NCBI GenBank assembly: GCA_035546615.1
Contig: DASZWM010000003.1
Location: 92,902-156,901, forward strand
Reading direction: 5' to 3'
Length of the DNA stretch: 64,000 nt
From: Minisyncoccota bacterium
GTDB lineage: Bacteria > Patescibacteriota > Minisyncoccia > Phycocordibacterales > SBAW01
Position numbers and translations under genes: made by a program. Below the pieces are notes generated by a model. That model did no database searches. It was not told the DNA's origin and saw only the letters and a program-made list of their open reading frames with translations. Numbering within the stretch: position 1 is the stretch's first letter; each line of letters opens with the position of its first letter. This document shows, piece by piece, positions 1,382-56,405 of this stretch.

Positions 1382-1467
1382 GAGCTTATTGTCTAGCGGA
1401 GCGAGTGAAAAGTAAAGCTTGCTTTCTTTTACGAGCGGAGCGACGACAATATCCGGGCCTTGCCCGG

Positions 1468-7263: not shown

Positions 7264-7728
<465 letters not shown>

Positions 7729-33221: not shown

Positions 33222-33304
33222 CCAGATACTATAGAACGAGGACGTTATATAATCGTCTCGCTGCAGAATCAAAAACAAGTTTTTGTTCACTCACTCGCTA
33301 GATT

Positions 33305-33505
33305 ATGAAAACCAACAAGTCATTTACGAAGCGCCTCAAAATCACCCGTACGGGGAAGATTATCGCGCGCAAGCCCGGCCAGGACCATTTCAACGCCAAG
33401 GAGCGCCGCTCAACCCAGATGGACGGCAACCGCTCCCAGGCCCTTTCCCTTACCCCGAAAGTGTCCCAGCGCTACATCGGCACCGCTTCTAAATCCCGCA
33501 ACTAA
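33305..33505 (+). CDS. rpmI: 50S ribosomal protein L35
   Basis: 66-aa basic protein, infC-rpmI-rplT order. Confidence 0.85.
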   Translation: MKTNKSFTKRLKITRTGKIIARKPGQDHFNAKERRSTQMDGNRSQALSLTPKVSQRYIGTASKSRN

Positions 33506-41383: not shown

Positions 41384-41387
41384 CGTA

Positions 41388-41957
41388 TCACGAGACGAAC
41401 TCCCGGATAACCCGCACGAATTCCTGCTTTGCCTGCTCCAGTCCCCCATTGGGATTGCGGATAACAGCTGTTGCCTGAGCCTTGAAGGCTGTCTCATCCT
41501 CGTACCGCTTGCGGCGCGCCAGGAGCTCCACTTCCGTAATAGGGGCCCGGGAGCGGATGCGCTGTTCAAGATCCTCCCAAGAACCGGCATCGATAAATAT
41601 CATGCGCAGTATATCGGCCGGAACTGCCGTCTGTATCTGGCGGGCGCCCTGTACTTCGACCTCGCGGACCACATTCTTACCCTGTTCGAGCGCCGGGAGT
41701 ATCTCTCCCTTGAGCGTGCCGTAGTAGTTACCTCCATACGAAGCCCACTCCAAAAAGTCTCCGGCAACTTCTCTTTTTTCGAATTCCTCCTTGGTTATGA
41801 AAAAATACTTTTCTCCTTCGACTTCGCCGGGGCGGGGCGTACGGGTCGTGCAGGAGCGCGGAAATATAAGTTCGGGCATCTGTTCGTGCAGATAGCTCAA
41901 CAGGGCGCTTTTCCCGCTACCGGAAGGGCCGATAACGAGAATAAATTTGCCTTGCAT
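41388..41957 (-). CDS. gmk: Guanylate kinase
   Basis: GPSGSGKS P-loop, TTRTPRPGEVEGEKYFF, GNYYGT. Confidence 0.8.
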   Translation of the reverse strand: MQGKFILVIGPSGSGKSALLSYLHEQMPELIFPRSCTTRTPRPGEVEGEKYFFITKEEFEKREVAGDFLEWASYGGNYYGTLKGEILPALEQGKNVVREVEVQGARQIQTAVPADILRMIFIDAGSWEDLEQRIRSRAPITEVELLARRKRYEDETAFKAQATAVIRNPNGGLEQAKQEFVRVIREFVS

Positions 41958-41965
41958 ACGGATTT

Positions 41966-43237
41966 TTAGTACTCGCGGATGGAAATCTGCGCATCTATGC
42001 GGCGCGCAAGATCGAGGATTACCGAAACGACGATGAGGAGCGCGGTGCCGCCGAGCGCGAGCGTCGAGATGCCGGTGACGTACTGCATGAATATAGGCAG
42101 GACCGCAATGATAGCCAGGAAGAGCGCGCCCACGAACGTGATGCGCGTGATTATCTTCGCCAAGTGCTCTGCGGTGGAGCCGCCCGGGCGTACGCCCGGA
42201 ATGAACGCGCCGTTCTTCTGGAGGTTCTCCGAGATCTGGTTAGGGTCGAACGTGACGGCGGTGTAGAAGTAGGTAAAGAGGAACACGAAGACGAAGTAGA
42301 GGCTGCCGTACAGGAGCAGGTTCTGGAACGCGCCCAGAATAGAGGATGAAATGGCGAGCAGGACCGCATTGCTTGAAGTGGCGAAGAAGCTCGCGAACAT
42401 CTGCGGGATGAGGAGCAGGGACAATGCGAAGATGATCGGAATGACCCCGGCCTGGTTGAGGCGAAGCGGAAGATAGGTGGAGGCGCCGCCGAAGAACTTC
42501 ATGCCGCGCACGCGCTTGGCATAAGTAACCGGCACCGGACGCTCCGCTTCGCTCACGGTAACGACCGCCGCGATGATGGCGATAGCCGCAGCGAGGAAGG
42601 CCGCATATACGGGGATCTGCGCCGCATCGAACGAGAACAGCGCCTGGCTGATGTCCTGCGGAAGGCGCGACACGATGCCTGCGAAGATGATAAGCGAAAC
42701 GCCGTTGCCTAGGCCGAATTCCGAGATGAGCTCGCCTATCCACATGAGAAGCACCGAGCCCGCGGTAATGACAAGCAGGTTCACGAGGAACTGCATTGGG
42801 GAAAGCGCGCCCAGCACGCCCTGGCGCTCAAGTATCAAAAGGAAGCTGATGCCCTGCGTTACCGCTATCGGAACGCTCAGCATGCGCGTGTACTGGCTGA
42901 AGCGCTGGCGGCCCGCCTCCCCCTCCTCCTGATACAGCTGCTTGAGCTTCGGCACCATCATTGTAAGGAGCTGCATGATGATGGATGCGGTGATGTAGGG
43001 AGCCACGCCCAGCATCACGATGGAAAGGCTCGAGAGGCCGCCGCCGGAGAAGAGGTTGAGCAGGCCGAAGAACTGGTTATTGGAAAAGAAAAGCTCCAGC
43101 TGAGCCGGATTGACGCCGGGGATCGGAATAGCGGCAAGCACGCGGAAGACCGCGAGCGCGCCGAGCACGAAGAGGAGCCGGTTGCGCAACGACTTGTCTG
43201 CGAGGAGGAGGGTAAGCCGTTCTATGAATGCATTCAT
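41966..43237 (-). CDS. secY: Preprotein translocase subunit SecY
   Basis: 423 aa, 10-TM, conserved SecY segments. Confidence 0.9.
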   Translation of the reverse strand: MNAFIERLTLLLADKSLRNRLLFVLGALAVFRVLAAIPIPGVNPAQLELFFSNNQFFGLLNLFSGGGLSSLSIVMLGVAPYITASIIMQLLTMMVPKLKQLYQEEGEAGRQRFSQYTRMLSVPIAVTQGISFLLILERQGVLGALSPMQFLVNLLVITAGSVLLMWIGELISEFGLGNGVSLIIFAGIVSRLPQDISQALFSFDAAQIPVYAAFLAAAIAIIAAVVTVSEAERPVPVTYAKRVRGMKFFGGASTYLPLRLNQAGVIPIIFALSLLLIPQMFASFFATSSNAVLLAISSSILGAFQNLLLYGSLYFVFVFLFTYFYTAVTFDPNQISENLQKNGAFIPGVRPGGSTAEHLAKIITRITFVGALFLAIIAVLPIFMQYVTGISTLALGGTALLIVVSVILDLARRIDAQISIREY

Positions 43238-43243
43238 GGGTGT

Positions 43244-43675
43244 TTATGCGCTGACGGAACCGCCAGCCTTCTCTATCTTAGCGCGAGCCGAGCCGGAAAC
43301 CGAGCATCCGGATATGGTGAGCTTCTTCGTGAGCTCTCCGTCGCCGAGGATCTTGACGACGCCTGTCTCGCGGACCGCGCCGCGCTCGATGAGGACTTTC
43401 GGAGTGATAGTGTCGCCCGGCGCGAACATCTTCTCCAGAAGCGCCACGTTAACGACGGACGGCTTGTCCTTGATGCTGCGCAAACCGCCTATGCCGCGCC
43501 CGCGGAGCTTCGGAAGCTTCTTAAGCTGCTCGCGAATGGCGGGCATGATCGAGTGGCCCGCGCGGGCCTTCTGGCCCTTGGTGCCGCGTCCGGAGGTCTT
43601 GCCCCGGCCGCCGCCGCGTCCGACGCGCTTCTCGCTTTTGTTGGGGGTTGCCCGCTTGAGTTCGTGGAGTTGCAT
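43244..43675 (-). CDS. rplO: 50S ribosomal protein L15
   Basis: RVGRGGGRGKTSGRGTKGQKARAG. Confidence 0.9.
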   Translation of the reverse strand: MQLHELKRATPNKSEKRVGRGGGRGKTSGRGTKGQKARAGHSIMPAIREQLKKLPKLRGRGIGGLRSIKDKPSVVNVALLEKMFAPGDTITPKVLIERGAVRETGVVKILGDGELTKKLTISGCSVSGSARAKIEKAGGSVSA

Positions 43676-43714
43676 AAATTTGAGTCTCTTTTTGATTGTT
43701 AAATCATTAAAATG

Positions 43715-44338
43715 CTACGCTTTCAATGATTTAAGAGCCTCTACCGCAGCGCGGGCATTGTTAAGGCCGTTCTTGCTGCCGGAGTGGACCTTCGCAACGA
43801 TGTTCGTGATGCCGGCAAGCTCAAGCACAGGACGAACCGAGGAGCCTGCGACAAGGCCGCGGCCGCGAGCCGGCATGAGGGATACGCGCGAGGCGTTGAA
43901 CTTGGCGTTCACATCATGGGCAATGGAAGAATCCTTGGTGAGCGACACGGTTATCATGTGCTTCTTGGCGTCGCGCACCGCCTTGTCTATCGCGAGGGTG
44001 GTGTCCCCTGCCTTGCCGACGCCGACGCCGACGCGGCCCTTCTTATTGCCGATGATTATGGAAACGCTGAAGGAGAACCGGCGGCCGCCCGCGATAACGC
44101 GGGATACGCGGCGGATGTTTATCATGCGCTGGTCGAACTCGGTCTTGCGCTCGGGGCGAGGGCCACGTGCGCCCGGACGGCCTCCGGGGCGACCGCCCTG
44201 GCGGCCGCGGCGGTCACCGCCGGCGCGAGGAGCGCGTGCAGGCGCCTCAGATGCAGCCACAGGAGCAGCAGCTTCAGCCGCAACCTCTGGGGCCGCTTCT
44301 GTATTGGTGTCTATTACTTTTTCTTCAGGGGTATCCAT
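43715..44338 (-). CDS. rpsE: 30S ribosomal protein S5 with ~65-aa Ala/Arg/Gly-rich N-terminal extension
   Basis: Core RMINIRRVSRVIAGGRRFSFSVSIIIGNKKGRVGVGVGKA matches S5; followed directly by rplO (no L30 gene). Confidence 0.85.
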   Translation of the reverse strand: MDTPEEKVIDTNTEAAPEVAAEAAAPVAASEAPARAPRAGGDRRGRQGGRPGGRPGARGPRPERKTEFDQRMINIRRVSRVIAGGRRFSFSVSIIIGNKKGRVGVGVGKAGDTTLAIDKAVRDAKKHMITVSLTKDSSIAHDVNAKFNASRVSLMPARGRGLVAGSSVRPVLELAGITNIVAKVHSGSKNGLNNARAAVEALKSLKA

Positions 44339-44343
44339 ATAGT

Positions 44344-44691
44344 TTAAAATTTGAGGCCTCCTTCGCGGGCTGCGGTCGCAAGCACCGCTACGCGTCCGGT
44401 GTAGCGGAAGCCGCCGCGATCGAACACTACTTCGTTAATGCCCGCCGCCGAGGCCGCCTTGGCGAGCGCCATGCCGAGCGCTTTTGCCGCATCGGTCTTC
44501 TTGGCCTTCATGCCCTTCGTGCTGCCGGCTACGATGGTCTTCCCTGCCTCGTCATCGATGACCTGCGCGTGCAGATAGCGGTTGGACTTGTACACGGCCA
44601 GGCGCGGGCGCGCGGCGGTGCCCATGACGCGGGCACGAATGCGCGCATGGCGGCGTGAGCGGCTTATAGTTTTAGTAATGCTTTTGTTCAT
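44344..44691 (-). CDS. rplR: 50S ribosomal protein L18
   Basis: typical L18 sequence. Confidence 0.9.
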   Translation of the reverse strand: MNKSITKTISRSRRHARIRARVMGTAARPRLAVYKSNRYLHAQVIDDEAGKTIVAGSTKGMKAKKTDAAKALGMALAKAASAAGINEVVFDRGGFRYTGRVAVLATAAREGGLKF

Positions 44692-44726
44692 ATTGGTCTT
44701 TTAGATCTTTCCTCGCAAGCTCGGAA

Positions 44727-45260
44727 CTACGCGGCCTTCTTGCCCTGCTTGCGGCGGATAACCTCGCCGTCGTAGCGGATGCCCTTGCCCTTGTACGGCT
44801 CCGGAACCTTGAGCGCGCGTACATTAGCCGCGAACTGGCCGACGAGCTCCTTATCGAAACCGGTTATGGAAAGTGCGCCCTTCTCTACCGTTACGGTAAG
44901 GCCTTCCGGGATGCTCATCTTGACCGGGTGCGAGAAGCCGAGGCTGAGGTTCAAGGTCTTCCCTGCGACATCCCACTTGTAGCCGACGCCCTCGATAGCA
45001 AGCTTCTTGGTGAAGCCGGTGCCGACGCCCTCTATCATGTTGCGGATGTGCGAAGCATAGCTGCCGACAAGCGCGCGAGCCTCGAGCGTGTCCTTCTTCA
45101 TCGCGACCTGCACGCCCTCAGGAACCTTCTCGATGGAAATGAGGCGGTGGCCCGGGCGCATGAGCGTGCCCTTCGGTCCCTTTACGGTAACCAAATCGCC
45201 CGAAATGGTTATTTCGGTCTTGGCCGGGACGGCTATTGGGCGTTTAGCTAGGCGTGACAT
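44727..45260 (-). CDS. rplF: 50S ribosomal protein L6
   Basis: typical L6 sequence. Confidence 0.9.
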   Translation of the reverse strand: MSRLAKRPIAVPAKTEITISGDLVTVKGPKGTLMRPGHRLISIEKVPEGVQVAMKKDTLEARALVGSYASHIRNMIEGVGTGFTKKLAIEGVGYKWDVAGKTLNLSLGFSHPVKMSIPEGLTVTVEKGALSITGFDKELVGQFAANVRALKVPEPYKGKGIRYDGEVIRRKQGKKAA

Positions 45261-45291
45261 ACAGGTTTTATGGAAGACGGGTTACACATGA

Positions 45292-45678
45292 TTACCAGAT
45301 TTCGAACAGGGCCTCGCCGCCGACGCGCTTTGCGCGCGCTTCCTTGCCGGTGAGGATGCCTTCAGGCGTCGAAAGCACGAGGAGGCCGTGGCCGCGCTTG
45401 ACCGGCTGCACGTCGCGCACGCCCATGTACATGCGGCGCGAGGGCTTCGAGATGCGCTTGGCGCCGCCGATAGCCGGACGGCCGCCCTTGTAGACGAGCA
45501 TGATGGAAAGGAGATTGTTCTTCGCGCGCTTATCTACCGCGCCGATGTAGCCCTCGCGCTCGAGCACTTCGGAAAGGGCGCGGGTCATCTTGGATGCGGG
45601 CACGACAACGGACTCCTTGCGCGCCATGGAGGCGTTGCGGATGCGGACGAGAAAATCTGCGATAGGGTCAGTTACCAT
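45292..45678 (-). CDS. rpsH: 30S ribosomal protein S8
   Basis: typical S8 sequence. Confidence 0.9.
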   Translation of the reverse strand: MVTDPIADFLVRIRNASMARKESVVVPASKMTRALSEVLEREGYIGAVDKRAKNNLLSIMLVYKGGRPAIGGAKRISKPSRRMYMGVRDVQPVKRGHGLLVLSTPEGILTGKEARAKRVGGEALFEIW

Positions 45679-45686
45679 ACGATTGA

Positions 45687-45872
45687 TTACCAGGATGACT
45701 TGCGGACGCCCGGGATGAGGCCCTCATTAGCCGCCTCGCGGAAGCAGGCGCGGCACATGCCGAAGTCGCGCATGAAGGAGCGCTTGCGGCCGCAGCGGAA
45801 GCAACGGTTAACAACCCTCGATTTGAATTTCGGAGGGCGGTTTGAGCGCGCGACTGTAGACTTTTTTGCCAT
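45687..45872 (-). CDS. rpsN: 30S ribosomal protein S14 type Z (zinc-binding)
   Basis: 61 aa, CFRCGRK...CRAC. Confidence 0.85.
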
Positions 45873-46002
45873 TGTGTAATTAGGTCCCCCGGACCGGCCG
45901 GGGGTACTCCCCTTACCTAGGAAGTTATGATTCTGCCGGTTTGCCTCGCCTTGCGACTAAGCGGCACCTAACAGAAAAAAGGAGCCCTGATGGGCTCGGC
46001 AA

Positions 46003-46031
46003 AATATACGCGATATGGGCATATAAGTCAA
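46003..46031 (-). promoter_or_regulatory. Sigma-70-type promoter TTGACT-N17-TATATT driving rpsN and downstream genes
   Basis: minus-sense ggatTTGACTtatatgcccatatcgcgTATATTttgcc, ~125 nt upstream of rpsN ATG; leader contains two hairpins (45981-45998, 45886-45904). Confidence 0.5.
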
Positions 46032-46101
46032 ATCCGGCTTGACAGGGAGCCGAGATATAGAAAACTGAGGGTAGTTGGTCGGCCCGTTGGAGGAAACTGC
46101 C

Positions 46102-46359
46102 ATGGTTGCACTGGCGCCTCCTGAACGGAGGCCGTTGTCGAAAATACGCGTATTCTTCGCCCTGATCGGATTAATAGGCATGACGCTTGTTATCCTCGGA
46201 GGCGCGGCGCTGGCGTTAGACGGCTTGGGAATGTTCTTCATCCACCATCTTCCAGCCGATAGGGCGGCCGGCATCACCGGGATGGGCATCATCCTTGTGG
46301 CAATGGCGATGGGGGTGTTCAACCTTCTGCGAAGAAAAATCAAAGGGCCCGCGGGATGA
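46102..46359 (+). CDS. Small (86 aa) two-TM membrane protein inserted antisense between rpsN and rplE
   Basis: GGAGGA SD 6 nt before ATG 46102; MVALAPPERRPLSKIRVFFALIGLIGMTLVILGGAALAL...; ends at terminator. Confidence 0.4.
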   Translation: MVALAPPERRPLSKIRVFFALIGLIGMTLVILGGAALALDGLGMFFIHHLPADRAAGITGMGIILVAMAMGVFNLLRRKIKGPAG

Positions 46360-46388
46360 CCATCTCCCGCGGGCCCTTCGTGATTTTA
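46344..46388. terminator. Bidirectional rho-independent terminator immediately after rplE
   Basis: agggcccgcggg-atgaccatctc-ccgcgggccct with T-runs on both sides. Confidence 0.6.
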
Positions 46389-46392
46389 AAAA

Positions 46393-46929
46393 CTATTTCT
46401 TGAATGGGAAGCCGAGGTGTGTGAGATATGCTTTCGCTTCGTCCTTGTTCTTGGCGCCCGTCACAACCGTGACCGACATGCCGAAGACATCCTTAAGCTC
46501 CTCGTCGGCGGTCTCCGGGAATACCGTGTTCTCCTTGATACCAAGCGTGTAGTTGCCCATCTCGTCGATAGCGGAAGTCTCGATACCCTTGAAGTCCTTG
46601 GTGCGAGGAAGCGCGATGTGCACGAGGCGGTTGAGGAAATCCTCAGCGCGCTTGCCGCGCATCGTTACCTGGTAGCCTATCTTGTCGCCCACGCGGGTCT
46701 TGAAGGTGGCGATGGCCTTCTTGGCGGCGCGGGGAGCCGGCTTCTGTCCGGTTATCTTCTCCAGCCGATTGGCGATGAGCTCGATCTTGTTCTTATCTTT
46801 GGTTGAGCCGGTACCAACGGAAATAACTACCTTCTCCACCTTGGGGGTCTGCATGACATTCACCCACCCAAGAGTGCCCTTGAGCTCCGCGAATGCCGTC
46901 TTCTGCTGTTCTTGAATGAGTTTAGCCAT
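46393..46929 (-). CDS. rplE: 50S ribosomal protein L5
   Basis: typical L5 sequence. Confidence 0.9.
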   Translation of the reverse strand: MAKLIQEQQKTAFAELKGTLGWVNVMQTPKVEKVVISVGTGSTKDKNKIELIANRLEKITGQKPAPRAAKKAIATFKTRVGDKIGYQVTMRGKRAEDFLNRLVHIALPRTKDFKGIETSAIDEMGNYTLGIKENTVFPETADEELKDVFGMSVTVVTGAKNKDEAKAYLTHLGFPFKK

Positions 46930-46937
46930 GGTGGTGG

Positions 46938-47029
46938 ATTATTATCTAGCGAGCGAGAGAAATGAAAACTTGTTTTCATTTCCGAGCGAGCGACGATAAT
47001 ATAAATTTTTCATAAAATTTCTATTTCTT
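46938..47029 (-). repeat. 92-nt AT-rich intercistronic element (copy 1) between rplX stop and rplE start; contains perfect 11-bp hairpin
   Basis: 88/92 nt identical to 49598-49689; gaaatgaaaac-tt-gttttcatttc stem flanked by direct AGCGAGCGA repeats. Confidence 0.6.
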
Positions 47030-47248
47030 CGGACCGACGTTGCTGGCGTGTATCGGGAAATGCTTGTCGATTATCTGGCCCTTCTGCCCTTCGCGGCGGG
47101 GCTTCTGGTGCTTCTTGCGCATGCCCACACCCTCAACGAGCACGAGGCCAAGCTTCGGGAAGGTCTTTACGACCCTGCCGCTCTTGCCCTTCTCGTTGCC
47201 CGAGAGGACCGTTACCGTATCGCCTTTTTTTACATGCATGGTATTCAT
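47021..47248 (-). CDS. rplX: 50S ribosomal protein L24
   Basis: KOW motif MHVKKGDTVTVLSGNEKGKSGRV. Confidence 0.85.
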   Translation of the reverse strand: MNTMHVKKGDTVTVLSGNEKGKSGRVVKTFPKLGLVLVEGVGMRKKHQKPRREGQKGQIIDKHFPIHASNVGPKK

Positions 47249-47265
47249 ACGTTTCTTTTTTATTG

Positions 47266-47289
47266 GTGTAAAAATTAAAATTTTTACAC
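47266..47289 (-). promoter_or_regulatory. AT-rich hairpin spanning rplN stop codon, 18 nt upstream of rplX start
   Basis: ggtgtaaaaa-ttaaaa-tttttacacc (9-bp stem). Confidence 0.35.
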
Positions 47290-47664
47290 AACCTCCGGAG
47301 CGCGGGAAATGATGGTCTGGTAGCCGAGCTCCTGGAGCTCGCGCGGGATAGGGCCGAAGATGCGGCCTGCCTTAGGCTCCTTCTTGTCCTTGCCGGCGGT
47401 GTCCAGTATGACGACCGCGTTCTCGTCGAAGCGGATGTACGAGCCGTCCTTGCGGCGCATGGCCTTCTTCTGGCGCACGACGACGGCGCGCAGGATGTCC
47501 TTCTTCTTAACGGCTTTGCGCGGCTCGGCCGACTGCACCGAAATGACCACGAGCTCGCCGATTTCCGCGTAGCGCTTCTTGGAACCGCCAAGCACTTTGA
47601 AAACGCGGCCGATCTTGGCGCCGGAATTATCTGCAACAACAACGAGTGAGCGGTCTTGTATCAT
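47284..47664 (-). CDS. rplN: 50S ribosomal protein L14
   Basis: typical L14 sequence. Confidence 0.9.
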   Translation of the reverse strand: MIQDRSLVVVADNSGAKIGRVFKVLGGSKKRYAEIGELVVISVQSAEPRKAVKKKDILRAVVVRQKKAMRRKDGSYIRFDENAVVILDTAGKDKKEPKAGRIFGPIPRELQELGYQTIISRAPEVV

Positions 47665-47665
47665 A

Positions 47666-47914
47666 TTAGTTTTCGAACACTATCTCGAAGGACTTGAGCT
47701 TCGACATAGGGCGGCACGAGCGGATGGTAACCGCCTCCCCTTCCTGCGCGCGGTTGCCCGGATTGTGGGCGTGGTAGCGCTTGGTCGACTTCATGTACTT
47801 CTTGTACTTCGGATGCTTCACGTAGCGGGATACGGCAACTACCGCCGTGTCCTGCATTTTAGCCGAGACTACGGTGCCGCGAAGCGTCTTCTTATGTACG
47901 GTTTTGGTTTCCAT
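47666..47914 (-). CDS. rpsQ: 30S ribosomal protein S17
   Basis: typical S17 sequence. Confidence 0.85.
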   Translation of the reverse strand: METKTVHKKTLRGTVVSAKMQDTAVVAVSRYVKHPKYKKYMKSTKRYHAHNPGNRAQEGEAVTIRSCRPMSKLKSFEIVFEN

Positions 47915-47915
47915 A

Positions 47916-48119
47916 TTATTTCTTTGCCGCGGCCTTCTGCGCGGCGAGCTCTGTCATGGCGCGCGCGACGTCTTTGCGGAGCGTGCGGGCGAGCTTTACA
48001 TTGCGATTTTTACTACCGGAAGCGGAAAAGCGCAAGCCGCGGAGCTCTTCGCGCTTATCGGCAACGATCTTGAGAAGATCGTCCTGGTTATGGTTCTTGA
48101 GCGAGTTCTTCTTGGTCAT
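47916..48119 (-). CDS. rpmC: 50S ribosomal protein L29
   Basis: 67-aa protein starting MTKKNSLKNHNQDDLLKIVADKREELRGLRF; ORF-track N-terminal extension rejected (overlaps rplP). Confidence 0.75.
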   Translation of the reverse strand: MTKKNSLKNHNQDDLLKIVADKREELRGLRFSASGSKNRNVKLARTLRKDVARAMTELAAQKAAAKK

Positions 48120-48120
48120 A

Positions 48121-48540
48121 TTAGTGTCTGGTGACCACCTTGGTCTTGAGCGGCAGCTTCTTCCCTGCCTTCTCGAGCGTCTCCTTGGCGAGGGGTCCGG
48201 CAACGCCGTCCACTTCGAACAGTACGCGGCCCGGCCATACTTCCACCTCGTAGCCGACCGGATCGCCCTTACCCTTGCCGAGCTTCACTTCCGGCGGCTT
48301 CTGGGTGAACGGCTTGTCGGGGAATACGCGCAGCCACATCTTGCCGGTCTTGCCGAGGCTGCGGACCACCACTTTGCGGGCGCTCTCGAGCTGGTTGGAG
48401 CGCAGGCGGGCGTGGGTCATCGCCTTGAGGCCGTGGGAACCAAAGGCAACGGTAATGCCGCGGGTAGCGACTTTGCCCTTCTTGGCATTGTGGCGCATCG
48501 TGTGCCACTTCCTGAATTTTACTTTTTTGGGGAATAACAT
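48121..48540 (-). CDS. rplP: 50S ribosomal protein L16
   Basis: typical L16 sequence. Confidence 0.9.
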   Translation of the reverse strand: MLFPKKVKFRKWHTMRHNAKKGKVATRGITVAFGSHGLKAMTHARLRSNQLESARKVVVRSLGKTGKMWLRVFPDKPFTQKPPEVKLGKGKGDPVGYEVEVWPGRVLFEVDGVAGPLAKETLEKAGKKLPLKTKVVTRH

Positions 48541-48567
48541 GGTGTTGATTCAATCCTCGGCACTTTT

Positions 48568-49248
48568 TTATTTGTCTTTGCCGCCATCCTTGCCGGTGGC
48601 TGCAAAGACCTCGCCGCGGTATATCCAAACCTTGACGCCGATGACGCCGAGCGGAAGGTTCGCGCGCTCCTTGGCATAGTCGATATCCGAACGGAACGTC
48701 TGGAGCGGGATGCGGCCCTTCTTGAGCTCCTCGGTGCGGGACATGGAGCCGCCGCCGAGCATGCCGGAAACGCCGATGCGCACTCCCTTCACGTCGCGGT
48801 TGGCCATCACCTTCTCGATGGTCTGCTTGAGCACGCGGCGGAACGGCATGCGCTTCTCGAGGCTCTCAACCACCATGTATGCGACTATTGCCGCGCTGGA
48901 CTCAGGGCTGCGAATTTCCTCGATATCGAGCTTGATCTCAGGGACCTGGAGCTTGCGCTTCTTAAGGAAGGCGACGATCTTGTCCTTGAGCTTGGTCGAG
49001 CCCTCGCCGGAGCGGCCGATGATGATGCCCGGGCGCGAGGTCTTGATGATAACGCGCAGCTGCTTTTCGTTGCGCTCTATCTCCAGGGCGCCGATGTACA
49101 TGCCGCGAAGCTCCTTCTGCAAAAATTCGCGCAGGAGGATATCGGCCTTGAGGTACTGCTGGTACTTGGCGCCGGTAGCGAACCAGCGGTGACGCCAGTC
49201 ACGCAGTATTCCGAGCCTATGGGCAAATGGGTTTACGACTTTAGACAT
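48568..49248 (-). CDS. rpsC: 30S ribosomal protein S3
   Basis: KH domain, typical S3. Confidence 0.9.
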   Translation of the reverse strand: MSKVVNPFAHRLGILRDWRHRWFATGAKYQQYLKADILLREFLQKELRGMYIGALEIERNEKQLRVIIKTSRPGIIIGRSGEGSTKLKDKIVAFLKKRKLQVPEIKLDIEEIRSPESSAAIVAYMVVESLEKRMPFRRVLKQTIEKVMANRDVKGVRIGVSGMLGGGSMSRTEELKKGRIPLQTFRSDIDYAKERANLPLGVIGVKVWIYRGEVFAATGKDGGKDK

Positions 49249-49252
49249 ATAG

Positions 49253-49594
49253 TTATTGGGCTTTCGCGGCCTTGCGGGAAAGGGCGAGGGTGATATGACT
49301 GGACTTCTTGCGTATCGGGGACGAGCTGCCGCGGGCGCGGGGCATGGAGCGCTTGAAGACGATGCCGCCGTTCACCTGGATGCTTGAAATGTAGAGCTCG
49401 GAGGCCGCAACATCCTTGCTGTTTGCAATAGCGGACTTAACCAGCTTTGCCATCGGGTCGGAGCCGCGCTTCGGGAGCGTGGCAAGAAGCGCGAGCGCGC
49501 GCTCGACGGACTTGCCGCGGATGAGGTCGGCAATGAGGCGCACCTTGCGGGGCGACTGGCGGTAGTTCTTGAGTGATGCGGTTGCGTCTGACAT
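49253..49594 (-). CDS. rplV: 50S ribosomal protein L22
   Basis: typical L22 sequence. Confidence 0.9.
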   Translation of the reverse strand: MSDATASLKNYRQSPRKVRLIADLIRGKSVERALALLATLPKRGSDPMAKLVKSAIANSKDVAASELYISSIQVNGGIVFKRSMPRARGSSSPIRKKSSHITLALSRKAAKAQ

Positions 49595-49597
49595 ATA

Positions 49598-49689
49598 ATT
49601 ATTATCTAGCGAGTGAGAGAAATGAAAACTTGTTTTCTTTTCCGAGCGAGCGACGATAATATAAATTATTCATATAATTTCTATTTCTT
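49598..49689 (-). repeat. 92-nt AT-rich intercistronic element (copy 2) between rpsS stop and rplV start
   Basis: 96% identical to 46938-47029; begins at KK* stop of upstream gene, ends 3 nt before ATG. Confidence 0.6.
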
Positions 49690-50052
49690 GCCTGCCGGAG
49701 CGCCAGCCTTGCCGCCCGCCGCATCAGCCGCAGCCTTGGCCGCGCCCGCTGCCGCGATCTCGGCCTCCTTGGCCTTGGTCTCCATCTCCTTCTGCATCTT
49801 GCCGCCGTGGCGCTGGAACTTCTTCGTGGGAGAGAACTCGCCCAGGCGGTGCCCGACCATGTCCTCGCTCACGAGCACCTCAACGTGCGTCTTGCCGTTG
49901 TGGACGCCGAACTTGAAGCCGACCATTTCGGGGGCTATCTGGCTGCGGCGCGCCCACGTCTTAATAAGCTCAGATCCTTGAGCTTTTTTGCCCTCAATCT
50001 TCTTGAGGAGCTTTTCGTCTACGTATGGTCCTTTTTTGAGGCTGCGTGCCAT
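49681..50052 (-). CDS. rpsS: 30S ribosomal protein S19 with Ala/Lys-rich C-terminal extension
   Basis: S19 core [13 protein letters not shown]...HNGKTHVEV; ~35-aa tail. Confidence 0.85.
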
Positions 50053-50122
50053 ATTTCCAAAATTAAAGCCCCTGTCCGTTTGAGCAGAGAGCGCTCAAAC
50101 CTTGCGACACGGGAGTACAGGG

Positions 50123-50151
50123 ATAGTACAGGATAAGGCTGGGATAGTCAA
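50123..50151 (-). promoter_or_regulatory. Sigma-70-type promoter TTGACT-N17-TACTAT for rpsS operon segment
   Basis: minus-sense aatTTGACTatcccagccttatcctgTACTATccc; leader hairpin gtttgagc-gctctct-gctcaaac (50079-50101). Confidence 0.5.
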
Positions 50152-50196
50152 ATTGTGCTATAGTCGGCCGCGGATTCCCCAACCTAGGAGGTTGCT

Positions 50197-50763
50197 GTGA
50201 TAGCGTCAGCCAATATCGTACAGGCGGAGTACTTTCACGTGGACGGAGGGAGGACTCATTCGCTCGATGTTCTGCGTAATCAAATACGGGAGCGTGTGAA
50301 AGACAATCTCGAGCTAGCCCTTCGGACGGGACAGGAAGTCTCGCCCGGCATCAAGACATGCGTCCGGTTCTGCGATAATGACGAATCGGTTACGGCACGC
50401 GTGCGAGAAGCCGAGCAGCTCGAGAAAAAATATGGCGCGACGCTCGATGCCCTTGGCCGGCCTCGGAACGGTCGCCTTATGCGCTGGTGGTATCGGCGCC
50501 AGCTGCGGAATATCGGCGACAGTAAGAGGCGCGCGAAAGAGACCGCCATAGAACATTCCATATCGGCGCTTTTGCGCGCGATCAAGGCCAAGGAAAAGAT
50601 CGCTGTCGAGAAAAACGACCATTCGTATCGCTTTCTCAACGACAACGAATCGCTCGAACTTGCTGAAAGGGTGAGCGCCGCGAAGAGCGGGTGGATATTT
50701 GTCTTCAAGCCAAATAAAGACCTGTTGGCGGACAGAAACACTATAGTAACCCGTATCATGTAA
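50197..50763 (+). CDS. Hypothetical 188-aa protein inserted antisense between rpsS and rplB (GTG start)
   Basis: AGGAGG SD 6 nt before GTG; extended -10 TGcTATAGT at 50156-50164; own strong terminator. Confidence 0.5.
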   Translation: MIASANIVQAEYFHVDGGRTHSLDVLRNQIRERVKDNLELALRTGQEVSPGIKTCVRFCDNDESVTARVREAEQLEKKYGATLDALGRPRNGRLMRWWYRRQLRNIGDSKRRAKETAIEHSISALLRAIKAKEKIAVEKNDHSYRFLNDNESLELAERVSAAKSGWIFVFKPNKDLLADRNTIVTRIM

Positions 50764-50770
50764 CGAAAAT

Positions 50771-50810
50771 CGCCCCGGCATTTTGCCGGGGCGTTCTCTT
50801 TTTTGTGTTT
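50771..50810. terminator. Rho-independent terminator (bidirectional) after 188-aa gene and after rplB
   Basis: cgccccggc-attt-tgccggggcg + ttctcttttttgtgtttgattttt. Confidence 0.65.
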
Positions 50811-50815
50811 GATTT

Positions 50816-51664
50816 TTACTGCTGTGCTCCGCGCTTGCCGACTTTGCGGCGGGAAACAATGAGGTAGTTGGAGTACTTCTTCGGGCGGCGAGACTTCTGG
50901 CCCTTGCCGGTGGGCTTGCCCCACATGGACTTCGCGCGACGCGTACCGCGGCCCTGGCGGCCTTCGCCTCCGCCGTACGGGTGGTCAACCGGGTTCATTG
51001 CAGTGCCGCGAACGGTCGGGCGGATGCCGAGCCAGCGGCTGCGGCCTGCTTTGCCGAGGTTCATGAGCTTGTTCTCAGGGTTGGAAACTTCGCCGAGGGT
51101 TGCCCAGCAGGTCTCAAGCACCTTGCGCACCTCCGAAGACGGCATCTTAAGGTCTACATAGCCGCCGTCGCGCGCGATAACCTCAATGTGCGTGCCTGCC
51201 GCGCGGCCAAGCTTGGCGCCGTTGCCCGGCTTTATCTCGACGTTGTATACGAATGCGCCGATCGGAACATTCTTAAGCGGCATACGATTGCCCGGAGTGG
51301 CTGCAGCCTCAGTCGCGGTCTCGATAACGTCCCCTACCCGGGCGGTCTGCGGGAGAAGCGCGTAGCGGCGCTCGCCGTCGCGGTACACCAGCACGCCGAT
51401 GAAGCCAGAACGGTTCGGATCATACTCGACGGTCTCTACCTTGGCCGGAACCTGCTTGTCGTAGAAAAAGTCCACCTCGCGGAACATGCGCTTGTGGCCG
51501 CCGCCCTTGTGGCGCACCGAAATGCGGCCCGCGTTGTCGCGGCCGGAACCGCGGCGCCCGCCCTTCGTAAGCGCCTTGTGCGGCTCGTTGGTTGTGAGCT
51601 TGCCGCGGAAGGTTACCGTGGTCATGCCGCGGCGCGATTTAGTATATGGTCGGTAGTGTTTCAT
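50816..51664 (-). CDS. rplB: 50S ribosomal protein L2
   Basis: typical L2 sequence. Confidence 0.9.
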   Translation of the reverse strand: MKHYRPYTKSRRGMTTVTFRGKLTTNEPHKALTKGGRRGSGRDNAGRISVRHKGGGHKRMFREVDFFYDKQVPAKVETVEYDPNRSGFIGVLVYRDGERRYALLPQTARVGDVIETATEAAATPGNRMPLKNVPIGAFVYNVEIKPGNGAKLGRAAGTHIEVIARDGGYVDLKMPSSEVRKVLETCWATLGEVSNPENKLMNLGKAGRSRWLGIRPTVRGTAMNPVDHPYGGGEGRQGRGTRRAKSMWGKPTGKGQKSRRPKKYSNYLIVSRRKVGKRGAQQ

Positions 51665-51695
51665 AAAATCTCTTTTTTAATTGGTCTAAATAAAT

Positions 51696-51983
51696 TTAGA
51701 CCAGCTCGATGGTCTCCCCCTTCTTGAGGAACACGTATGCCTTCTTTCCTGCGCTAGTTTTGCCCTTGCGGTTAGTACGGCGGGTGAGCACTGCCTTGCG
51801 GGGAACAGCGACAATGCGTACGAAGCGAGGAGTGACCTTGTAGACGGTCTGCACCGCATCCGCAATCTCCTTCTTGTTGGCATCCATCGCCACGTTGAAG
51901 ACATAGACGCTATGCTCAGAAAGGTATGCGCCTTTTTCCGTGATGCGGGGCGAGAGCAGTATGTGGGTGTGAGAGCGTTTCAT
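51696..51983 (-). CDS. rplW: 50S ribosomal protein L23
   Basis: typical L23 sequence. Confidence 0.85.
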   Translation of the reverse strand: MKRSHTHILLSPRITEKGAYLSEHSVYVFNVAMDANKKEIADAVQTVYKVTPRFVRIVAVPRKAVLTRRTNRKGKTSAGKKAYVFLKKGETIELV

Positions 51984-51984
51984 A

Positions 51985-52704
51985 TTATTTCTTTACCACC
52001 TTCTTAGCGCCCAAGGTCTCCATAGCGGCGGCCGGCTCTGCAATGATGAGGTACTTGCTGGAGAGGACCGATACCGGGTTCAGGTTGCGCACCTCCACCA
52101 TCTCGACATTACCGAAGTTCTGGAAGCTCTTCTGCGTTGCAACATGCACGCGCGGAATAGCGATAAGCGCGGCGTTCTTTGCCTTCGAAAGGCCGGAGAA
52201 GGTCTTGCCGAGCGCTGCAAGGAGTATCTTGGCCTGTGCGGTCTTCGGGCTGCTCAACTCAAGCGAGTCTATAAAGAGCACCTCCCCGTCCTTGTACTTG
52301 CGGGAAAGGGTCACGAGGAGCGCCTTCTGGCGGGCCTGGCGGTTTATCTTCTGGGCGTAGATCTTCTCGTTGCGAGGACCGTGGGTAACGCCGCCGCCCT
52401 TCCATATAGGAGAGCGCGAGGAGCCATGGCGGGCGCGGCCGGTGCCCTTTTGCTTCCAAGGCTTCTTGCCGCCGCCGCGAACCTCGCCCCGGTCTTTAGT
52501 ATGAGCGACCGGGCCGCGAGCATTGGCCTGCATCGCGGTAACCACCTGGTGCACGAGGTCGGCATTCCAAGGAAGTCCGAAGATGTTCTCCGGAAGCATG
52601 AAGGTGCCGGCCGACTTGCCGTCCTTGTTGAAGACGGAAGCCTCCATCTTGTTGCCGGCCGGAGCGGCCTTCTCTACTTTCTTTGTTTTGGTAGTGGTAG
52701 CCAT
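51985..52704 (-). CDS. rplD: 50S ribosomal protein L4
   Basis: typical L4 sequence. Confidence 0.9.
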   Translation of the reverse strand: MATTTKTKKVEKAAPAGNKMEASVFNKDGKSAGTFMLPENIFGLPWNADLVHQVVTAMQANARGPVAHTKDRGEVRGGGKKPWKQKGTGRARHGSSRSPIWKGGGVTHGPRNEKIYAQKINRQARQKALLVTLSRKYKDGEVLFIDSLELSSPKTAQAKILLAALGKTFSGLSKAKNAALIAIPRVHVATQKSFQNFGNVEMVEVRNLNPVSVLSSKYLIIAEPAAAMETLGAKKVVKK

Positions 52705-52709
52705 AAAAA

Positions 52710-53342
52710 TTATGATGTTGCAGCAGTGCCGCGGATCTCAACTACCGTACCGCGGCGGCCGGGAACGGCGCCTGCGAGAACGAGCTCGTTGGTCTCGGGA
52801 AGTATCTGGAGTATCGGAAGGTTGCGGACGGTTACGCGGTCAGAACCCATGCGGCCCGCCATGCGCATGCCCTTGGCAACGCGGCCTCCCGCGCGGCCGC
52901 CTGAGCCGCCTATGGAGCCCGGTGCGCGCTCGGAGTGCTTCTGGCCGTGGGAGCGAGGACCGCCGTGGAAGCCGTGGCGCTTAACGACGCCCTGGAAGCC
53001 GCGGCCCTTGGAAATAGCCGAAACGGTTACCTTCTCCCCTACTGCGAATGCGGAGAGGTCTACGACTGCGCCGACCTCAACATCTGCCGCGCCGCCCTTG
53101 AGATTGATCTCGCGGAAATGGCGGAGCGCTTTGCCCTTCGTGTGGCCCATCTGCGCCTTGCTGACGTGCTTGGGGGTCGTCTCGACGCCGCCGATCTGGA
53201 CTGCGGAATAGCCGTCCTTCTCCACCGTCTTTATCTGGGTTACCAGGTTAGGAGCGGCGTTTATGACGGTAGCGGCAAAAGCCTGTCCCTCTTCGGTATA
53301 GACAGTAGTCATTTTGCCCTTTGTTCCAAGGATGAATTTCAT
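52710..53342 (-). CDS. rplC: 50S ribosomal protein L3
   Basis: typical L3 sequence. Confidence 0.9.
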   Translation of the reverse strand: MKFILGTKGKMTTVYTEEGQAFAATVINAAPNLVTQIKTVEKDGYSAVQIGGVETTPKHVSKAQMGHTKGKALRHFREINLKGGAADVEVGAVVDLSAFAVGEKVTVSAISKGRGFQGVVKRHGFHGGPRSHGQKHSERAPGSIGGSGGRAGGRVAKGMRMAGRMGSDRVTVRNLPILQILPETNELVLAGAVPGRRGTVVEIRGTAATS

Positions 53343-53359
53343 AACTTAGCGTAGTGAGT

Positions 53360-53383
53360 GAGAAGAAAATGTATTTTCTTCTC
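53360..53383 (-). promoter_or_regulatory. Leader hairpin (11-bp stem) 17 nt upstream of rplC start
   Basis: gagaagaaaat-gt-attttcttctc flanked by AGTGAGTGAG / GGAGCGAC. Confidence 0.4.
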
Positions 53384-53493
53384 CGAACGGAGCGACAGTT
53401 ATATCGGGGGATTTTCCCGCTATGTTGTCTGTAGGTCCCTCTGCTTGGCCCAAGGCCTGGGACGCGGATCAACTCTTATGTAGAGTCCCAAAG

Positions 53494-53522
53494 AATATAC
53501 ATCAGAGCCTTAATTTATGCAA
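53494..53522 (-). promoter_or_regulatory. Sigma-70-type promoter TTGCAT-N17-TATATT for rplC-rplD-rplW-rplB
   Basis: minus-sense TTGCATaaattaaggctctgatgTATATTcttt at edge of AT-rich island. Confidence 0.55.
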
Positions 53523-53544
53523 ATAGTGATGATAAACTTAGTAT

Positions 53545-53961
53545 ATGAACATTTTTGAGATAATTGGATTTATATTTCTTATAAGTGCCTTTTTAATGGG
53601 ATTTGGTTATAATTTATTTACAGATTTCCTTTGGTTTAAATGGCTGCATAAGTGGGTGCCTGAGCAATTCCGAGAGCGTAAAAACATTCAAAAACCTTTT
53701 TCTCTTATGGCTTCTGAATATTTCAAAAATAACTTCTTTGCATTTACTAGTCCCTCAAATCCTCCTGATCCAATGTTTCAAAGGCCTCTTACCCTTCTAC
53801 TTCCTATGATCTTAACCGTTGTTAGCTTGATGATAGCTGGCATATCATTGGTTGAGGCTCCATTTTTTGAATGTCTTATAGGCGTAATTGTTTTTCTCGC
53901 TATTAGTCTGTTCTTTATAGTACGTCTAGCAAAAAGACAGATCAAAAACCATACTTGGTAG
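53545..53961 (+). CDS. Hypothetical 138-aa membrane protein encoded in AT-rich island
   Basis: AT-rich codon usage distinct from host; 3-4 TM helices; hairpin gcctcatc-aaaaat-gatgaggc downstream. Confidence 0.5.
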   Translation: MNIFEIIGFIFLISAFLMGFGYNLFTDFLWFKWLHKWVPEQFRERKNIQKPFSLMASEYFKNNFFAFTSPSNPPDPMFQRPLTLLLPMILTVVSLMIAGISLVEAPFFECLIGVIVFLAISLFFIVRLAKRQIKNHTW

Positions 53962-54210
53962 AAAATAAGGGCAAGAATAAAGCCTCATCAAAAATGATGA
54001 GGCGGATGGGGAGGGAGAGGAGGGTGGGGAAAAAAGAGAAGAAAGAACTAGATGGAATGATGGAGTGGGAGAGCGTGTAAAAACAGAGGCTCAGGAAGGA
54101 TGCGAGAGTACCGTAAGCGAGCGCGCTATATGGTTTCCCATCGCAGACCTCCGCTGTCAGTCAGTCCGTTTATGAGAACCGGGCACGACGCAAAAGGTTA
54201 CATACACGAA

Positions 54211-54234
54211 AAGGCCTCCGCGCGGAGGCCTTTT
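54211..54234. terminator. Palindromic GC hairpin with flanking A/T runs (possible bidirectional terminator, end of candidate sRNA)
   Basis: gaaaaggcctccg-cgcggaggccttttcg. Confidence 0.4.
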
Positions 54235-54420
54235 CGTTCCAATTTCTTTGCTCAGCTTGCAGAGTGTGCCCTGTGGGCTGCAAACGGAACAAAAAACCCG
54301 ACCTATAGTTCGGGCGAAATTAACGCCTATGTGTCGCGACTAAAGGACAAAACCGTACTGAGCGTCTTGTTCTAAGTATATGAATTGCTCATCTTTAGTC
54401 AATAAAATTTTCCACAAAAA

Positions 54421-54448
54421 CAAAAACTCCCGCCGAAGCGGGAGTTTT
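54421..54448 (-). terminator. Rho-independent terminator directly downstream of rpsJ
   Basis: minus-sense aaaaactcccgc-ttcg-gcgggagtttttgtttttgtgg. Confidence 0.6.
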
Positions 54449-54492
54449 TCGAATGCCATTCTTTTTGATTTGTAAAAATGTCCTAGCTAACG

Positions 54493-54870
54493 CTATGCCA
54501 TTTTTACGTCGATAGTGACACCGGAAGGAAGTGAGAGGTTCGTGAGAGCCTCGATGACCTTGGCAGACGGATCGAGGATGTCGATGACGCGCTTATGGAT
54601 GCGCATCTCGAACTGCTCGCGCGCGTCCTTGTAGACGAAGGTCGAGCGGTTGACCGTGTACTTCTTTATCTCGGTCGGCAGCGGTATCGGGCCTGCGACC
54701 TTCGCGTCGTAGCGAAGCGCGGTGTCGAGTATCTGCTTGATGCTCGCATCAAGCACCTTGTGCTCGTACGCGCGGACCTTGATGCGAAGGCGCTGGACTG
54801 CGGCCGGGGCGGCTGCGCGGCGTGCGCGCTTAGGAGCTGCTTTCTTCTCTGCTATTGGTTCGGTAGCCAT
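54493..54870 (-). CDS. rpsJ: 30S ribosomal protein S10 (with ~25-aa basic N-terminal extension)
   Basis: [25 protein letters not shown]... Confidence 0.85.
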
Positions 54871-54881
54871 ACTTTTTTATT

Positions 54882-54902
54882 GGCAGACAACGAGTTGTCT
54901 GC
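54882..54902 (-). promoter_or_regulatory. Leader hairpin 12 nt upstream of rpsJ start
   Basis: gcagacaac-tcg-ttgtctgc followed by AAUAAAAAAGUAUG. Confidence 0.35.
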
Positions 54903-55013
54903 TTTGAGTCTAGTTCTCCTGTTCTCCAGGTAACCTATACTCGGTTAGCTTACGCTTACAGATAATGGGAACGCTCATCACTATGGCCTAGATTACGAAT
55001 AATTGCAACACGA

Positions 55014-55038
55014 AAAAGTCCCGCCTACGCGGGACTTT
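55014..55038 (-). terminator. Rho-independent terminator after tuf
   Basis: minus-sense aaaaagtcccgc-gtag-gcgggactttttcg. Confidence 0.65.
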
Positions 55039-55071
55039 TTCAGCAACGTCTTTTTGATTTAAAATTGTTGC

Positions 55072-56268: not shown

Positions 56269-56355
56269 AAATAAAATACCTAGTGAATAATACTTTTAAG
56301 ACCTTGTAACGCACACAGTGAGCACAGAAAAGCACGCCCTATCGCTTTAGAGCCA

Positions 56356-56383
56356 ATAGTAGCAGAAGCTGAAAAACAGTCAA
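56356..56383 (-). promoter_or_regulatory. Sigma-70-type promoter TTGACT-N16-TACTAT upstream of tuf
   Basis: minus-sense ggTTGACTgtttttcagcttctgcTACTATtgg, ~88-nt leader. Confidence 0.5.
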
Positions 56384-56405
56384 CCCGCCGCGCCTAGGCG
56401 CAGGG

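Follow-up and report, generated by a model that had tools for sequence, protein, structure and literature searches.

A hairpin-forming interspersed repeat of Patescibacteria, probably mobile, at ribosomal protein gene junctions of a Minisyncoccota genome

Several classes of short hairpin-forming sequences are known to lie beside bacterial genes. The repetitive extragenic palindromic (REP) and REPIN sequences of proteobacteria, which are associated with the RAYT (TnpA-REP) protein, are short imperfect palindromes present in many intergenic copies, in either orientation, cotranscribed with genes and active on one strand. The palindrome-associated transposable elements (PATEs) derived from IS200/IS605 are defined by hairpins rather than by terminal inverted repeats. 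Both REP/RAYT and IS200/IS605-type elements are handled as single-stranded hairpins by HUH enzymes. Correia (NEMIS), ERIC, BOX, RUP, and Rickettsia palindromic elements are miniature gene-adjacent repeats that form mRNA hairpins and may bring promoters or processing sites, and the leader RNAs of ribosomal protein (r-protein) operons (S8/spc, L4/S10, L20) place a structured sequence directly 5' of r-protein start codons. In this study, we analyzed a stretch of 64,000 nucleotides (nt) from a Minisyncoccota bacterium (GenBank assembly GCA_035546615.1, contig DASZWM010000003.1, positions 92,902 to 156,901), referred to here as the window, in which two nearly identical 92-nt sequences, copies A and B, precede rplE and rplV. 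We consider it likely, with a probability of roughly 0.6, that A and B arose by two recent insertions and represent a 92-nt subfamily within a noncoding, hairpin-forming interspersed repeat that has spread through Patescibacteria, also called the Candidate Phyla Radiation (CPR). The element is apparently an undescribed ~70-nt repeat of this group, and it is probably mobile in the manner of REPs or miniature inverted-repeat transposable elements (MITEs), acting as single-stranded DNA and landing at ATRA beside stop/start junctions.

The window has a GC content of 60%, and its S10-spc r-protein cluster is encoded on the minus strand, as are all genes around A and B. Each copy lies between the stop codon of one r-protein gene and the start codon of the next. 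A sequence-only reading of the window had reported that the two copies are nearly identical and begin at the Lys-Lys-stop of the upstream gene, and alignment confirmed both points. Identity is 88/92, and the 37-nt core that they share occurs twice in the window versus zero times expected by chance. In sense order, both copies consist of AAG AAA TAG (the end of rplX in A and of rpsS in B), an AT hairpin (AAATTWT-ATGA-AWAATTT), ATAT, the outer-stem (P1) strand TATTATC, the loop strand GTCGCTCGCTCGG, an apical hairpin (GAAATGAAAAC-AA-GTTTTCATTTC), the loop strand TCTCGCTCGCTA, and the second P1 strand, GATAATA, which ends 5 nt (B) or 10 nt (A) before the ATG. Other details of that reading hold for one copy only. 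The end 3 nt before the start codon applies to B (rplV ATG at 49594), whereas 8 nt (ccaccacc) separate A from the rplE ATG at 46929; the 11-bp stem is perfect in A but has one mismatch in B, and the repeats flanking the stem show one change in B (AGCGAGTGA). Two of the four differences between A and B form a compensatory pair within the left-arm hairpin. Copy A is not an assembly artifact, because this organism has also been assembled independently in Logan (L001; compared loci are numbered in this way below), and there the identical sequence is present 5' of rplE, on a contig that terminates inside the element.

A search pattern that contains the two loop strands only (GTCGCTC N2-3 TCGG N24 CTCRCT N1-2 GCTA) matched 62 loci in a scan of GTDB with one genome per species, against approximately 2 expected by chance on a rough estimate. 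Among these, 58 are titled Patescibacteria or unnamed bin, and the remaining 4 come from a single metagenome-assembled genome (MAG) titled Bdellovibrionales, in which all 4 matches bear Moranbacteria-type flanks. The named groups with matches are Moranii-, Kaiser-, Adler-, Taylor-, Nomura-, Falkow-, Sungii-, and Saccharibacteria. The pattern matches 3 to 6 times in several genomes, with a maximum of 6 per MAG, and the strict pattern combined with a covariance model gives up to 6 to 7 copies per MAG. A scan of JGI metagenomes added 101 stretches, and the 3 of these that plainly lack the hairpin fit the chance estimate of about 2. The pattern had no match in IMG/VR viral contigs, and the phage and plasmid collections contained no homologue, only chance matches of 31 to 35 nt to AT palindromes in Providencia plasmids. 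Rfam 15 recognized only a tmRNA and two tRNAs in the window, with no rRNA among the matches, and searches with copies A, C, and E and four other loci, at the gathering threshold and at E<=10, returned no family (best, 13.5 bits, E=6). No description of the element was found in the literature searched, including by the core sequence itself. A covariance model of 61 copies, run over the window with filters off, detected five copies (A to E; Table 1), and the loose pattern adds approximately 125 copies from public genomes and metagenomes, with nearly all named matches in Patescibacteria. The earlier suggestion that A and B might be miniature repeat elements is supported and considerably widened, as they are members of a multicopy family.

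The ~70-nt core is a rod-like hairpin composed of the AT-rich outer stem P1, the loop strands, and an apical stem, P2, of 9 to 10 pairs. P1 consists of four freely covarying pairs and three conserved pairs, and the two loop strands, GTCGCTCGYTCGG and CTCRCT..GCTA, are invariant and pyrimidine rich, with few G-C pairs between them. In the 61-sequence alignment, 95.4% of cells are paired, and both partners have changed in 14 of the 21 pairs (169 cells). The observed measures were not reached in any of 500 column shuffles, and when the partners were slid by 1 to 3 columns, pairing was 38 to 53%. One of the G-C pairs that RNAalifold places across the "internal loop" covaries (C-G 23, U-A 22); because positions are paired across this loop, we regard the element as an irregular rod as a whole. 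The minimum-energy folds predicted for A, C, and D as single sequences have the same shape. The conservation of GTCGCTCG.TCGG and CTC.CT..GCTA is fixed by the search pattern. Conservation also extends to positions outside the pattern: GCTA is followed by four variable bases and then by A (92%), T (114/114), A (92%), and A or G, giving the consensus ATRA, which in C, E, and L058 is formed by the gene's own ATG plus A. In the loops, 27 nucleotides hardly vary among Saccharibacteria, Moranbacteria, and Kaiserbacteria. When the family as a whole was examined for an additional hairpin on the 5' side of the core (P0), the signal was not significant (z, -0.70 upstream versus -0.59 downstream); such a hairpin is clear in some subfamilies only, including that of A, B, and L164.

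Seven relatives (L002 to L005 and L169 to L171), whose L5 proteins are 83 to 89% identical, lack A and B at the corresponding junctions. Their spacers measure 0 to 12 nt between rplX and rplE and 2 to 6 nt between rpsS and rplV, and the covariance model found no copy anywhere in L003 to L005 (E<=0.001) or in L002, L169, and L171 (E<=1). The empty sites read AAGAAATAATATATG, AAGAAATAATATTGTATG, and AAGAAATAAatcgtATG. Relative to these, the filled sites carry the element after AAGAAATA, the stop codon TAA has become TAG, and ATAA remains on the right; the only repeat seen when filled and empty sites are compared is one of 2 to 4 A/T nucleotides (AATA/TA) that is indistinguishable from microhomology. 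Judged from this comparison, A and B are recent, lineage-specific insertions, and the proposal of a "mobile or recently duplicated" module is supported both by these empty sites and by the size of the family. On a metagenome contig of a related organism (L164), a member of the 92-nt subfamily with the same left arm occupies a different junction, rpsL|rpsG, where it is placed as AAATAG...GATTATAAccatATG. Copy C, together with an extra small GC hairpin, is shared with an Adlerbacteria locus (L058; L3 71% identical) and is missing in the closer L003 and L004 (L3 78 to 84% identical). The presence of this rplC copy in L058 but not in the closer relatives therefore implies precise loss or repeated gain.

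In this window, the forward strand of the element is the mRNA-sense strand. Within P2 and the covarying loop pair, the non-Watson-Crick cells of the forward strand are A.C in 72 cases and G.U in 6, and the mismatches originated by T-to-C changes in the 3' arm at A-T positions and by G-to-A changes in the 5' arm at G-C positions. Since a change in either arm gives a wobble pair on the opposite strand, the A.C bias does not result from one arm being more constrained. The A.C:G.U ratio is 8:1 in copies that are sense to their neighbors and 14:0 in antisense copies. Selection at the RNA level, with the wobble bias following the transcribed strand, was rejected on this ground, the bias being present in sense and antisense copies alike. 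The consensus fold energy is -22.5 kcal/mol for the reverse strand versus -12.0 kcal/mol for the forward strand, and 45 of the 61 sequences fold more stably as the reverse strand. Because the mismatches are A.C, not G.U, whichever way the neighbors run, the folding strand appears to be the one opposite to the mRNA sense. A single folding strand that is fixed irrespective of transcription points to single-stranded DNA or an element-specific transcript and not to an mRNA leader; no conserved promoter was seen for an element-specific transcript. Relative to the flanking genes, the copies are same/same in 22 cases, opposite/opposite in 18, convergent in 9, and divergent in 6, and the balance was similar with a better gene caller, in both AT-rich and GC-rich loci. 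The first context tables, based on open reading frames (ORFs), had miscalled GC-rich loci and were redone with a codon-position GC filter, which is still imperfect.

We propose that the element is nonautonomous and would be copied or moved by an enzyme encoded elsewhere. This enzyme would recognize the hairpin on one DNA strand, here the complement of the r-protein mRNAs, and insertion would take place beside ATAA or ATGA. In a genome with 60% GC and no Shine-Dalgarno sequences, these tetranucleotides would occur mainly at stop-start junctions (...AAATAA(N)ATG). We infer that r-protein operons collect copies, without a regulatory role, because they are full of such junctions. The element could also be lost precisely, in which case the excision junction would read AAGAAATAAT..ATG. 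We rank mobile DNA first mainly because a fixed strand folds regardless of the direction of transcription. The likeness to REP/RAYT and IS200/IS605 systems is drawn because the element has one hairpin, strand specificity, a tetranucleotide that is partly host derived, no clear duplication, and apparently precise gain and loss.

With REPs the element shares all of the properties listed above, including many intergenic copies of a palindrome (5 in 64 kb). Unlike REPs, it has no GTAG head at the foot of the palindrome (the alignment reads GTCGCTC.., ..GCTAG), shows no inverted doublets, and is longer (~70 nt), with two invariant unpaired strands; its core is conserved over whole CPR classes, whereas REPs differ between genera, and no RAYT was found. 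Like PATEs, it is defined by a hairpin, shows strand specificity and apparently precise presence or absence, and is bordered on one side by a conserved tetranucleotide (ATRA, or TYAT on the folding strand), while a target duplication is not obvious. It differs from them in having one conserved hairpin in place of distinct left-end and right-end hairpins, and no Y1 transposase was detected; the insertion mechanism that underlies this likeness is entirely inferred. P1 would provide a 7-bp inverted repeat as in MITEs, but four of its pairs covary between copies. The Correia-type families are confined to genera or families and have defined terminal repeats and, in Correia, a TA duplication, whereas the present element spans a superphylum and has an outer stem that covaries instead of being conserved. 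Several further identities were rejected. On the sense strand, AATAA comes directly after the core, and on the opposite strand CAAAAG or ATAT does, so that a U tract is lacking, and a terminator scan made no call, which speaks against an intrinsic terminator. The flanks TTGTTATC ... GATAATAA do not fit the R''/R' sites of integron attC (RYYYAAC ... GTTRRRY) in either orientation, and the copies are solitary. TIGR arrays are excluded by the solitary copies and by the conservation of the would-be spacer stems, and the defining motifs of boxA/nut-like antitermination and of a K-turn are absent from the sequence.

Table 1. Coordinates of the repeat copies, their parts, and an additional palindrome in the window
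Feature	Position	Strand	Location or sequence	Remarks
Copy A (92-nt subfamily)	46938..47029	-	rplX stop TAG 47021-47023 to rplE ATG 46927-46929	Covariance model, 85.6 bits
Copy A, left-arm hairpin	47003-47020	-	AAATTTT-ATGA-AAAATTT	
Copy A, P1 5' strand	46995-47001	-	TATTATC	
Copy A, 5' loop strand	46982-46994	-	GTCGCTCGCTCGG	
Copy A, P2 hairpin	46959-46982	-		11-bp stem, perfect
Copy A, 3' loop strand	46947-46958	-	TCTCGCTCGCTA	
Copy A, P1 3' strand	46940-46946	-	GATAATA	
Copy A, 23-codon open frame	46942..47013	-	MKNLYYRRSLGNENKFSFLSLAR	Runs through the copy
Copy B (92-nt subfamily)	49598..49689	-	rpsS stop 49681-49683 to rplV ATG 49592-49594	Covariance model, 80.2 bits
Copy B, P2	49619-49642	-		One A.A mismatch, plus one C.A at loop pair
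Copy B, 23-codon open frame	49602-49673	-	MNNLYYRRSLGKENKFSFLSLAR	Counterpart of the frame in copy A
Copy C	53336..53407	-	Directly before rplC (ATG 53340-53342)	Covariance model, 73.7 bits
Copy D	1383..1455	-	ligA (1468-3474) / gatC (1082-1381)	62.7 bits; missed in the sequence-only reading
Copy E, degenerate	33244..33311	+	infC (32703-33221) / rpmI (33305-33505)	33.6 bits
11-bp perfect palindrome	47266..47289	.	Over rplN stop	Lineage-specific ~30-nt addition; not in family

Several observations weigh against a mobile element. Neither a transposase nor another partner could be found: when 1.2 Mb of loci were searched by tblastn with two Y1 transposase sequences, no match had an E value below 0.3. 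This negative says little, as loci of this kind would seldom include a gene present once per genome. No clear target-site duplication is present, and a REP-type GTAG is missing from either strand of the alignment. REPs and MITEs are not usually conserved nearly as deeply as this sequence is among the CPR classes, a hint that it may serve the host or be recognized by a conserved partner in the cell. Between the window and L058, the orthologous rplC copies have kept the hairpin through two compensatory changes, which would not be expected of a dead selfish insertion. Each of the five window copies has the same sense as the genes around it and lies 0 to 12 nt before a start codon, with the ATG inside P1 in C and E. 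R-protein genes are enriched approximately 3- to 4-fold next to start-abutting forward copies, given an assumed background of 6 to 7% of CPR genes. Finally, copies of the Kaiserbacteria/Adlerbacteria type have the 3' flank GGYTATAAT, followed by exactly 6 nt and ATG.

Some of these observations would also fit a cis-acting RNA that benefits the host, in which the hairpin in the mRNA is bound by a conserved CPR protein or nuclease and controls the stability, processing, or start-codon access of the adjacent gene, chiefly of translation genes, without Shine-Dalgarno pairing. The deeply conserved 27 loop nucleotides with their covarying stems, the position of the window copies at start codons, the r-protein genes downstream, and the structure retained in the orthologous rplC copies all favor such an RNA. 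Approximately half of the copies, however, are antisense to or downstream of their neighbors, the sense-strand mismatches are A.C and not G.U even in forward copies, the r-protein genes of close relatives do without A and B, and no Rfam family matches; we therefore regard this explanation as possible but unlikely. Somewhat less probable still is a structured nucleic acid signal found throughout the CPR that is not selfish and would mark gene boundaries via a dedicated, conserved partner, which would constitute a new CPR-specific class of cis-element. One possibility is that such a signal serves as a translation-restart or start-site element for operons without Shine-Dalgarno sequences, another that it is a strand-specific DNA site of a core cellular machine.

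The flank of the Kaiserbacteria/Adlerbacteria-type copies raises a DNA-level alternative, namely, a gene-boundary cassette that combines a 5' hairpin or terminator with an outward -10 box at its 3' end, from which a leaderless or short-leader mRNA would start. GGYTATAAT-N6-ATG occurs in at least 7 copies, and B, D, and L164 have GATAAT, GACAAT, or GATTAT-N6-ATG, so that two different registers both give 6 nt. The T at the would-be -7 position is invariant, a promoter consensus scan picks out TTTTCA-16-GATAAT and TAGAAA-16-TATTAT within A and B, some copies adjoin divergent tRNA genes, and terminators already divide the r-protein cluster in this lineage. Yet the critical -11 A is present in only ~55% of copies, in C, E, and L058 the supposed -10 box contains the ATG, approximately half of the copies point toward the 3' end of a gene that converges on them, and a promoter in duplex DNA does not account for stem covariation. 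AT-rich stems also yield -10-like hexamers by chance, and we consider a cassette of this kind improbable. The sequence-only reading had proposed an autoregulatory r-protein binding site, that is, an operator that mimics an rRNA site of the S8, L4, or L20 type. In E. coli, S8 binds at the rplE start, and copies are found at the rplE start and also at two classical points of regulation, in front of rplC and rpmI. The motif, however, precedes genes of many unrelated functions, is absent from orthologous junctions, and occurs in both orientations; no Rfam leader family matches even at E<=10, and the mismatches indicate that the mRNA-sense strand is not the one selected to fold. Unlike the known leaders, the element is neither conserved in position nor specific to r-protein genes, and its wobble is on the wrong strand. 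This proposal is largely refuted, and we give it very little credence.

Among the frames that start within ~50 nt downstream of forward copies, 12 of 55 encode r-proteins (S14 twice, L3 twice, S7, L14, L21, L22, L5, L34, L29, and L35), in addition to IF3 and GatC. The others include D-Ala-D-Ala ligase (Ddl) three times, RhuM, YceG, glycosyltransferases, SMC, an ABC ATPase, a resolvase, and RuvA. By these assignments, the downstream genes are enriched for translation genes and are not limited to them.

The insertions extend junctions of 0 to 12 nt in the relatives to 86 to 91 nt with A and B, and they bring a hairpin with a predicted energy of -11 to -18 kcal/mol up to the start codon. Native junctions of the window read like aaataatATG, and direct restart from the preceding stop codon is probably lost at rplE and rplV. 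A predicted 23-codon frame runs through each of the two copies, starting 7 nt after the upstream stop and ending 7 to 12 nt before the next ATG. Translation of this frame, if it occurs, could melt the hairpin and relay ribosomes. L164 retains a 22-codon version; the frames of A, B, and L164 are too similar to be independent evidence. The absence of a Shine-Dalgarno sequence, which had been pointed out for A and B, is real but not special to them, since none of 27 gene starts inspected in the window has one. The starts inspected (40000-57000) are A/U rich upstream (aataatATG, aaactatATG), with little space between stop and start codons.

The remaining copies and hairpins of the window vary in their relation to the family. 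The hairpin noted before rplC (53360-53383) as related to those of A and B proved to be a true homologue, part of copy C, which aligns with A and B through the whole core; both of its stems differ from those of A and B by compensatory changes. The AT of the rplC ATG forms the last two P1 pairs of copy C, and a small GC hairpin (53408-53425) lies immediately 5' of it. Also on the minus strand, a leader at 53408-53500 is conserved 3' of a promoter (TTGCAT-17-TATAGT), with the sequence GGACTCT..ACATAGGGTTG.TCCACGTCC..GGGGACCAATAGAAACC. It is found as well in L003 (2140-2238), L004 (3660-3756), and L058 (6590-6690), so that it does not depend on whether a relative carries the repeat. Rfam has no match for this sequence, which may be a true leader of an r-protein operon. 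In copy E, the rpmI ATG falls within the P1 3' strand; the identities of gatC and rpmI were confirmed with Pfam. The hairpin described over the rplN stop before rplX does exist as a palindrome, but the covariance model does not recognize it, and it is unique in the window and absent from L003 and L004. Its 5' arm holds the last codon and the stop of rplN, and its 3' arm resembles a templated copy of the adjoining sequence.

Several variants were seen among the other loci. In Moranbacteria (L006, L016, L018, L019, L024, L057, L060, and L062), the core lies at the center or tip of a ~190-nt element with many near-identical copies and long terminal inverted repeats (TTTGCCTGTTTTCTTTTGAGGC ... GCCGAGAAAGGAAACAGGCAAA) around the core. 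The ends of this element enclose a different middle in L055 (1307-1393). L059 (2395-2425, minus strand) has a copy of the 3' half only (CTCTCACTTTGCTAGCGAAT), 45 nt upstream of a full copy, which is evidence that elements decay or are partly duplicated. Between two repeat copies of L055 (4380-4900), just upstream of rpmH (L34), there are several DnaA-box-like TTATCCAC motifs, and replication of this Parcubacteria genome probably begins in that region.

The S10-spc cluster of the window is split after rpsJ, rplB, and rplE (50053-50815, 53343-54492, and 46344-46392). The breaks carry strong terminator-like hairpins (54449-54422, 50793-50771, and 46380-46341) and inserted opposite-strand ORFs without a Pfam match (50197-50763 and 53545-53961). 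They are conserved in L003, L004, and L005, where the inserted genes differ (SAICAR synthase in L003). In L169/L170 (3843-12594), a block of ~9 kb directly after rplE encodes a serine recombinase, a Phage_rep_O-like protein, a helix-turn-helix regulator, and an NYN nuclease; this block is a mobile element that has integrated where the spc cluster is also interrupted in the window. S19 of the window (49681-50052, minus strand) has 123 residues, with a C-terminal tail of ~30 residues rich in Ala, Lys, and Glu, and measures 118 to 123 residues in relatives. Elsewhere in the window, a tRNA-Ile with the anticodon UAU is encoded at 24622-24695 on the plus strand (ARAGORN; Rfam tRNA, 70.6 bits). Reading of AUA by a tRNA-Ile with UAU is unusual in bacteria, compared with the lysidine-modified CAU. 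Five repeats at 4549-7707, whose reverse complement encodes a GFTLIELLVV-type pilin N terminus, belong to a type IV pilin-like gene cluster.

The CPR bacteria make up a large share of bacterial diversity, have tiny genomes, and have almost no described noncoding elements. The combination of near-invariant loops and covarying stems in this repeat implies a conserved partner that nobody has named. The element breaks assemblies, as in L001, splits operons that are otherwise tightly coupled, and could mislead the annotation of r-protein leaders. If it is mobile via single-stranded DNA, it would provide a handle on genome dynamics in organisms that are thought to be static. If it is functional, it would bear on how genes start in bacteria that do without Shine-Dalgarno pairing.

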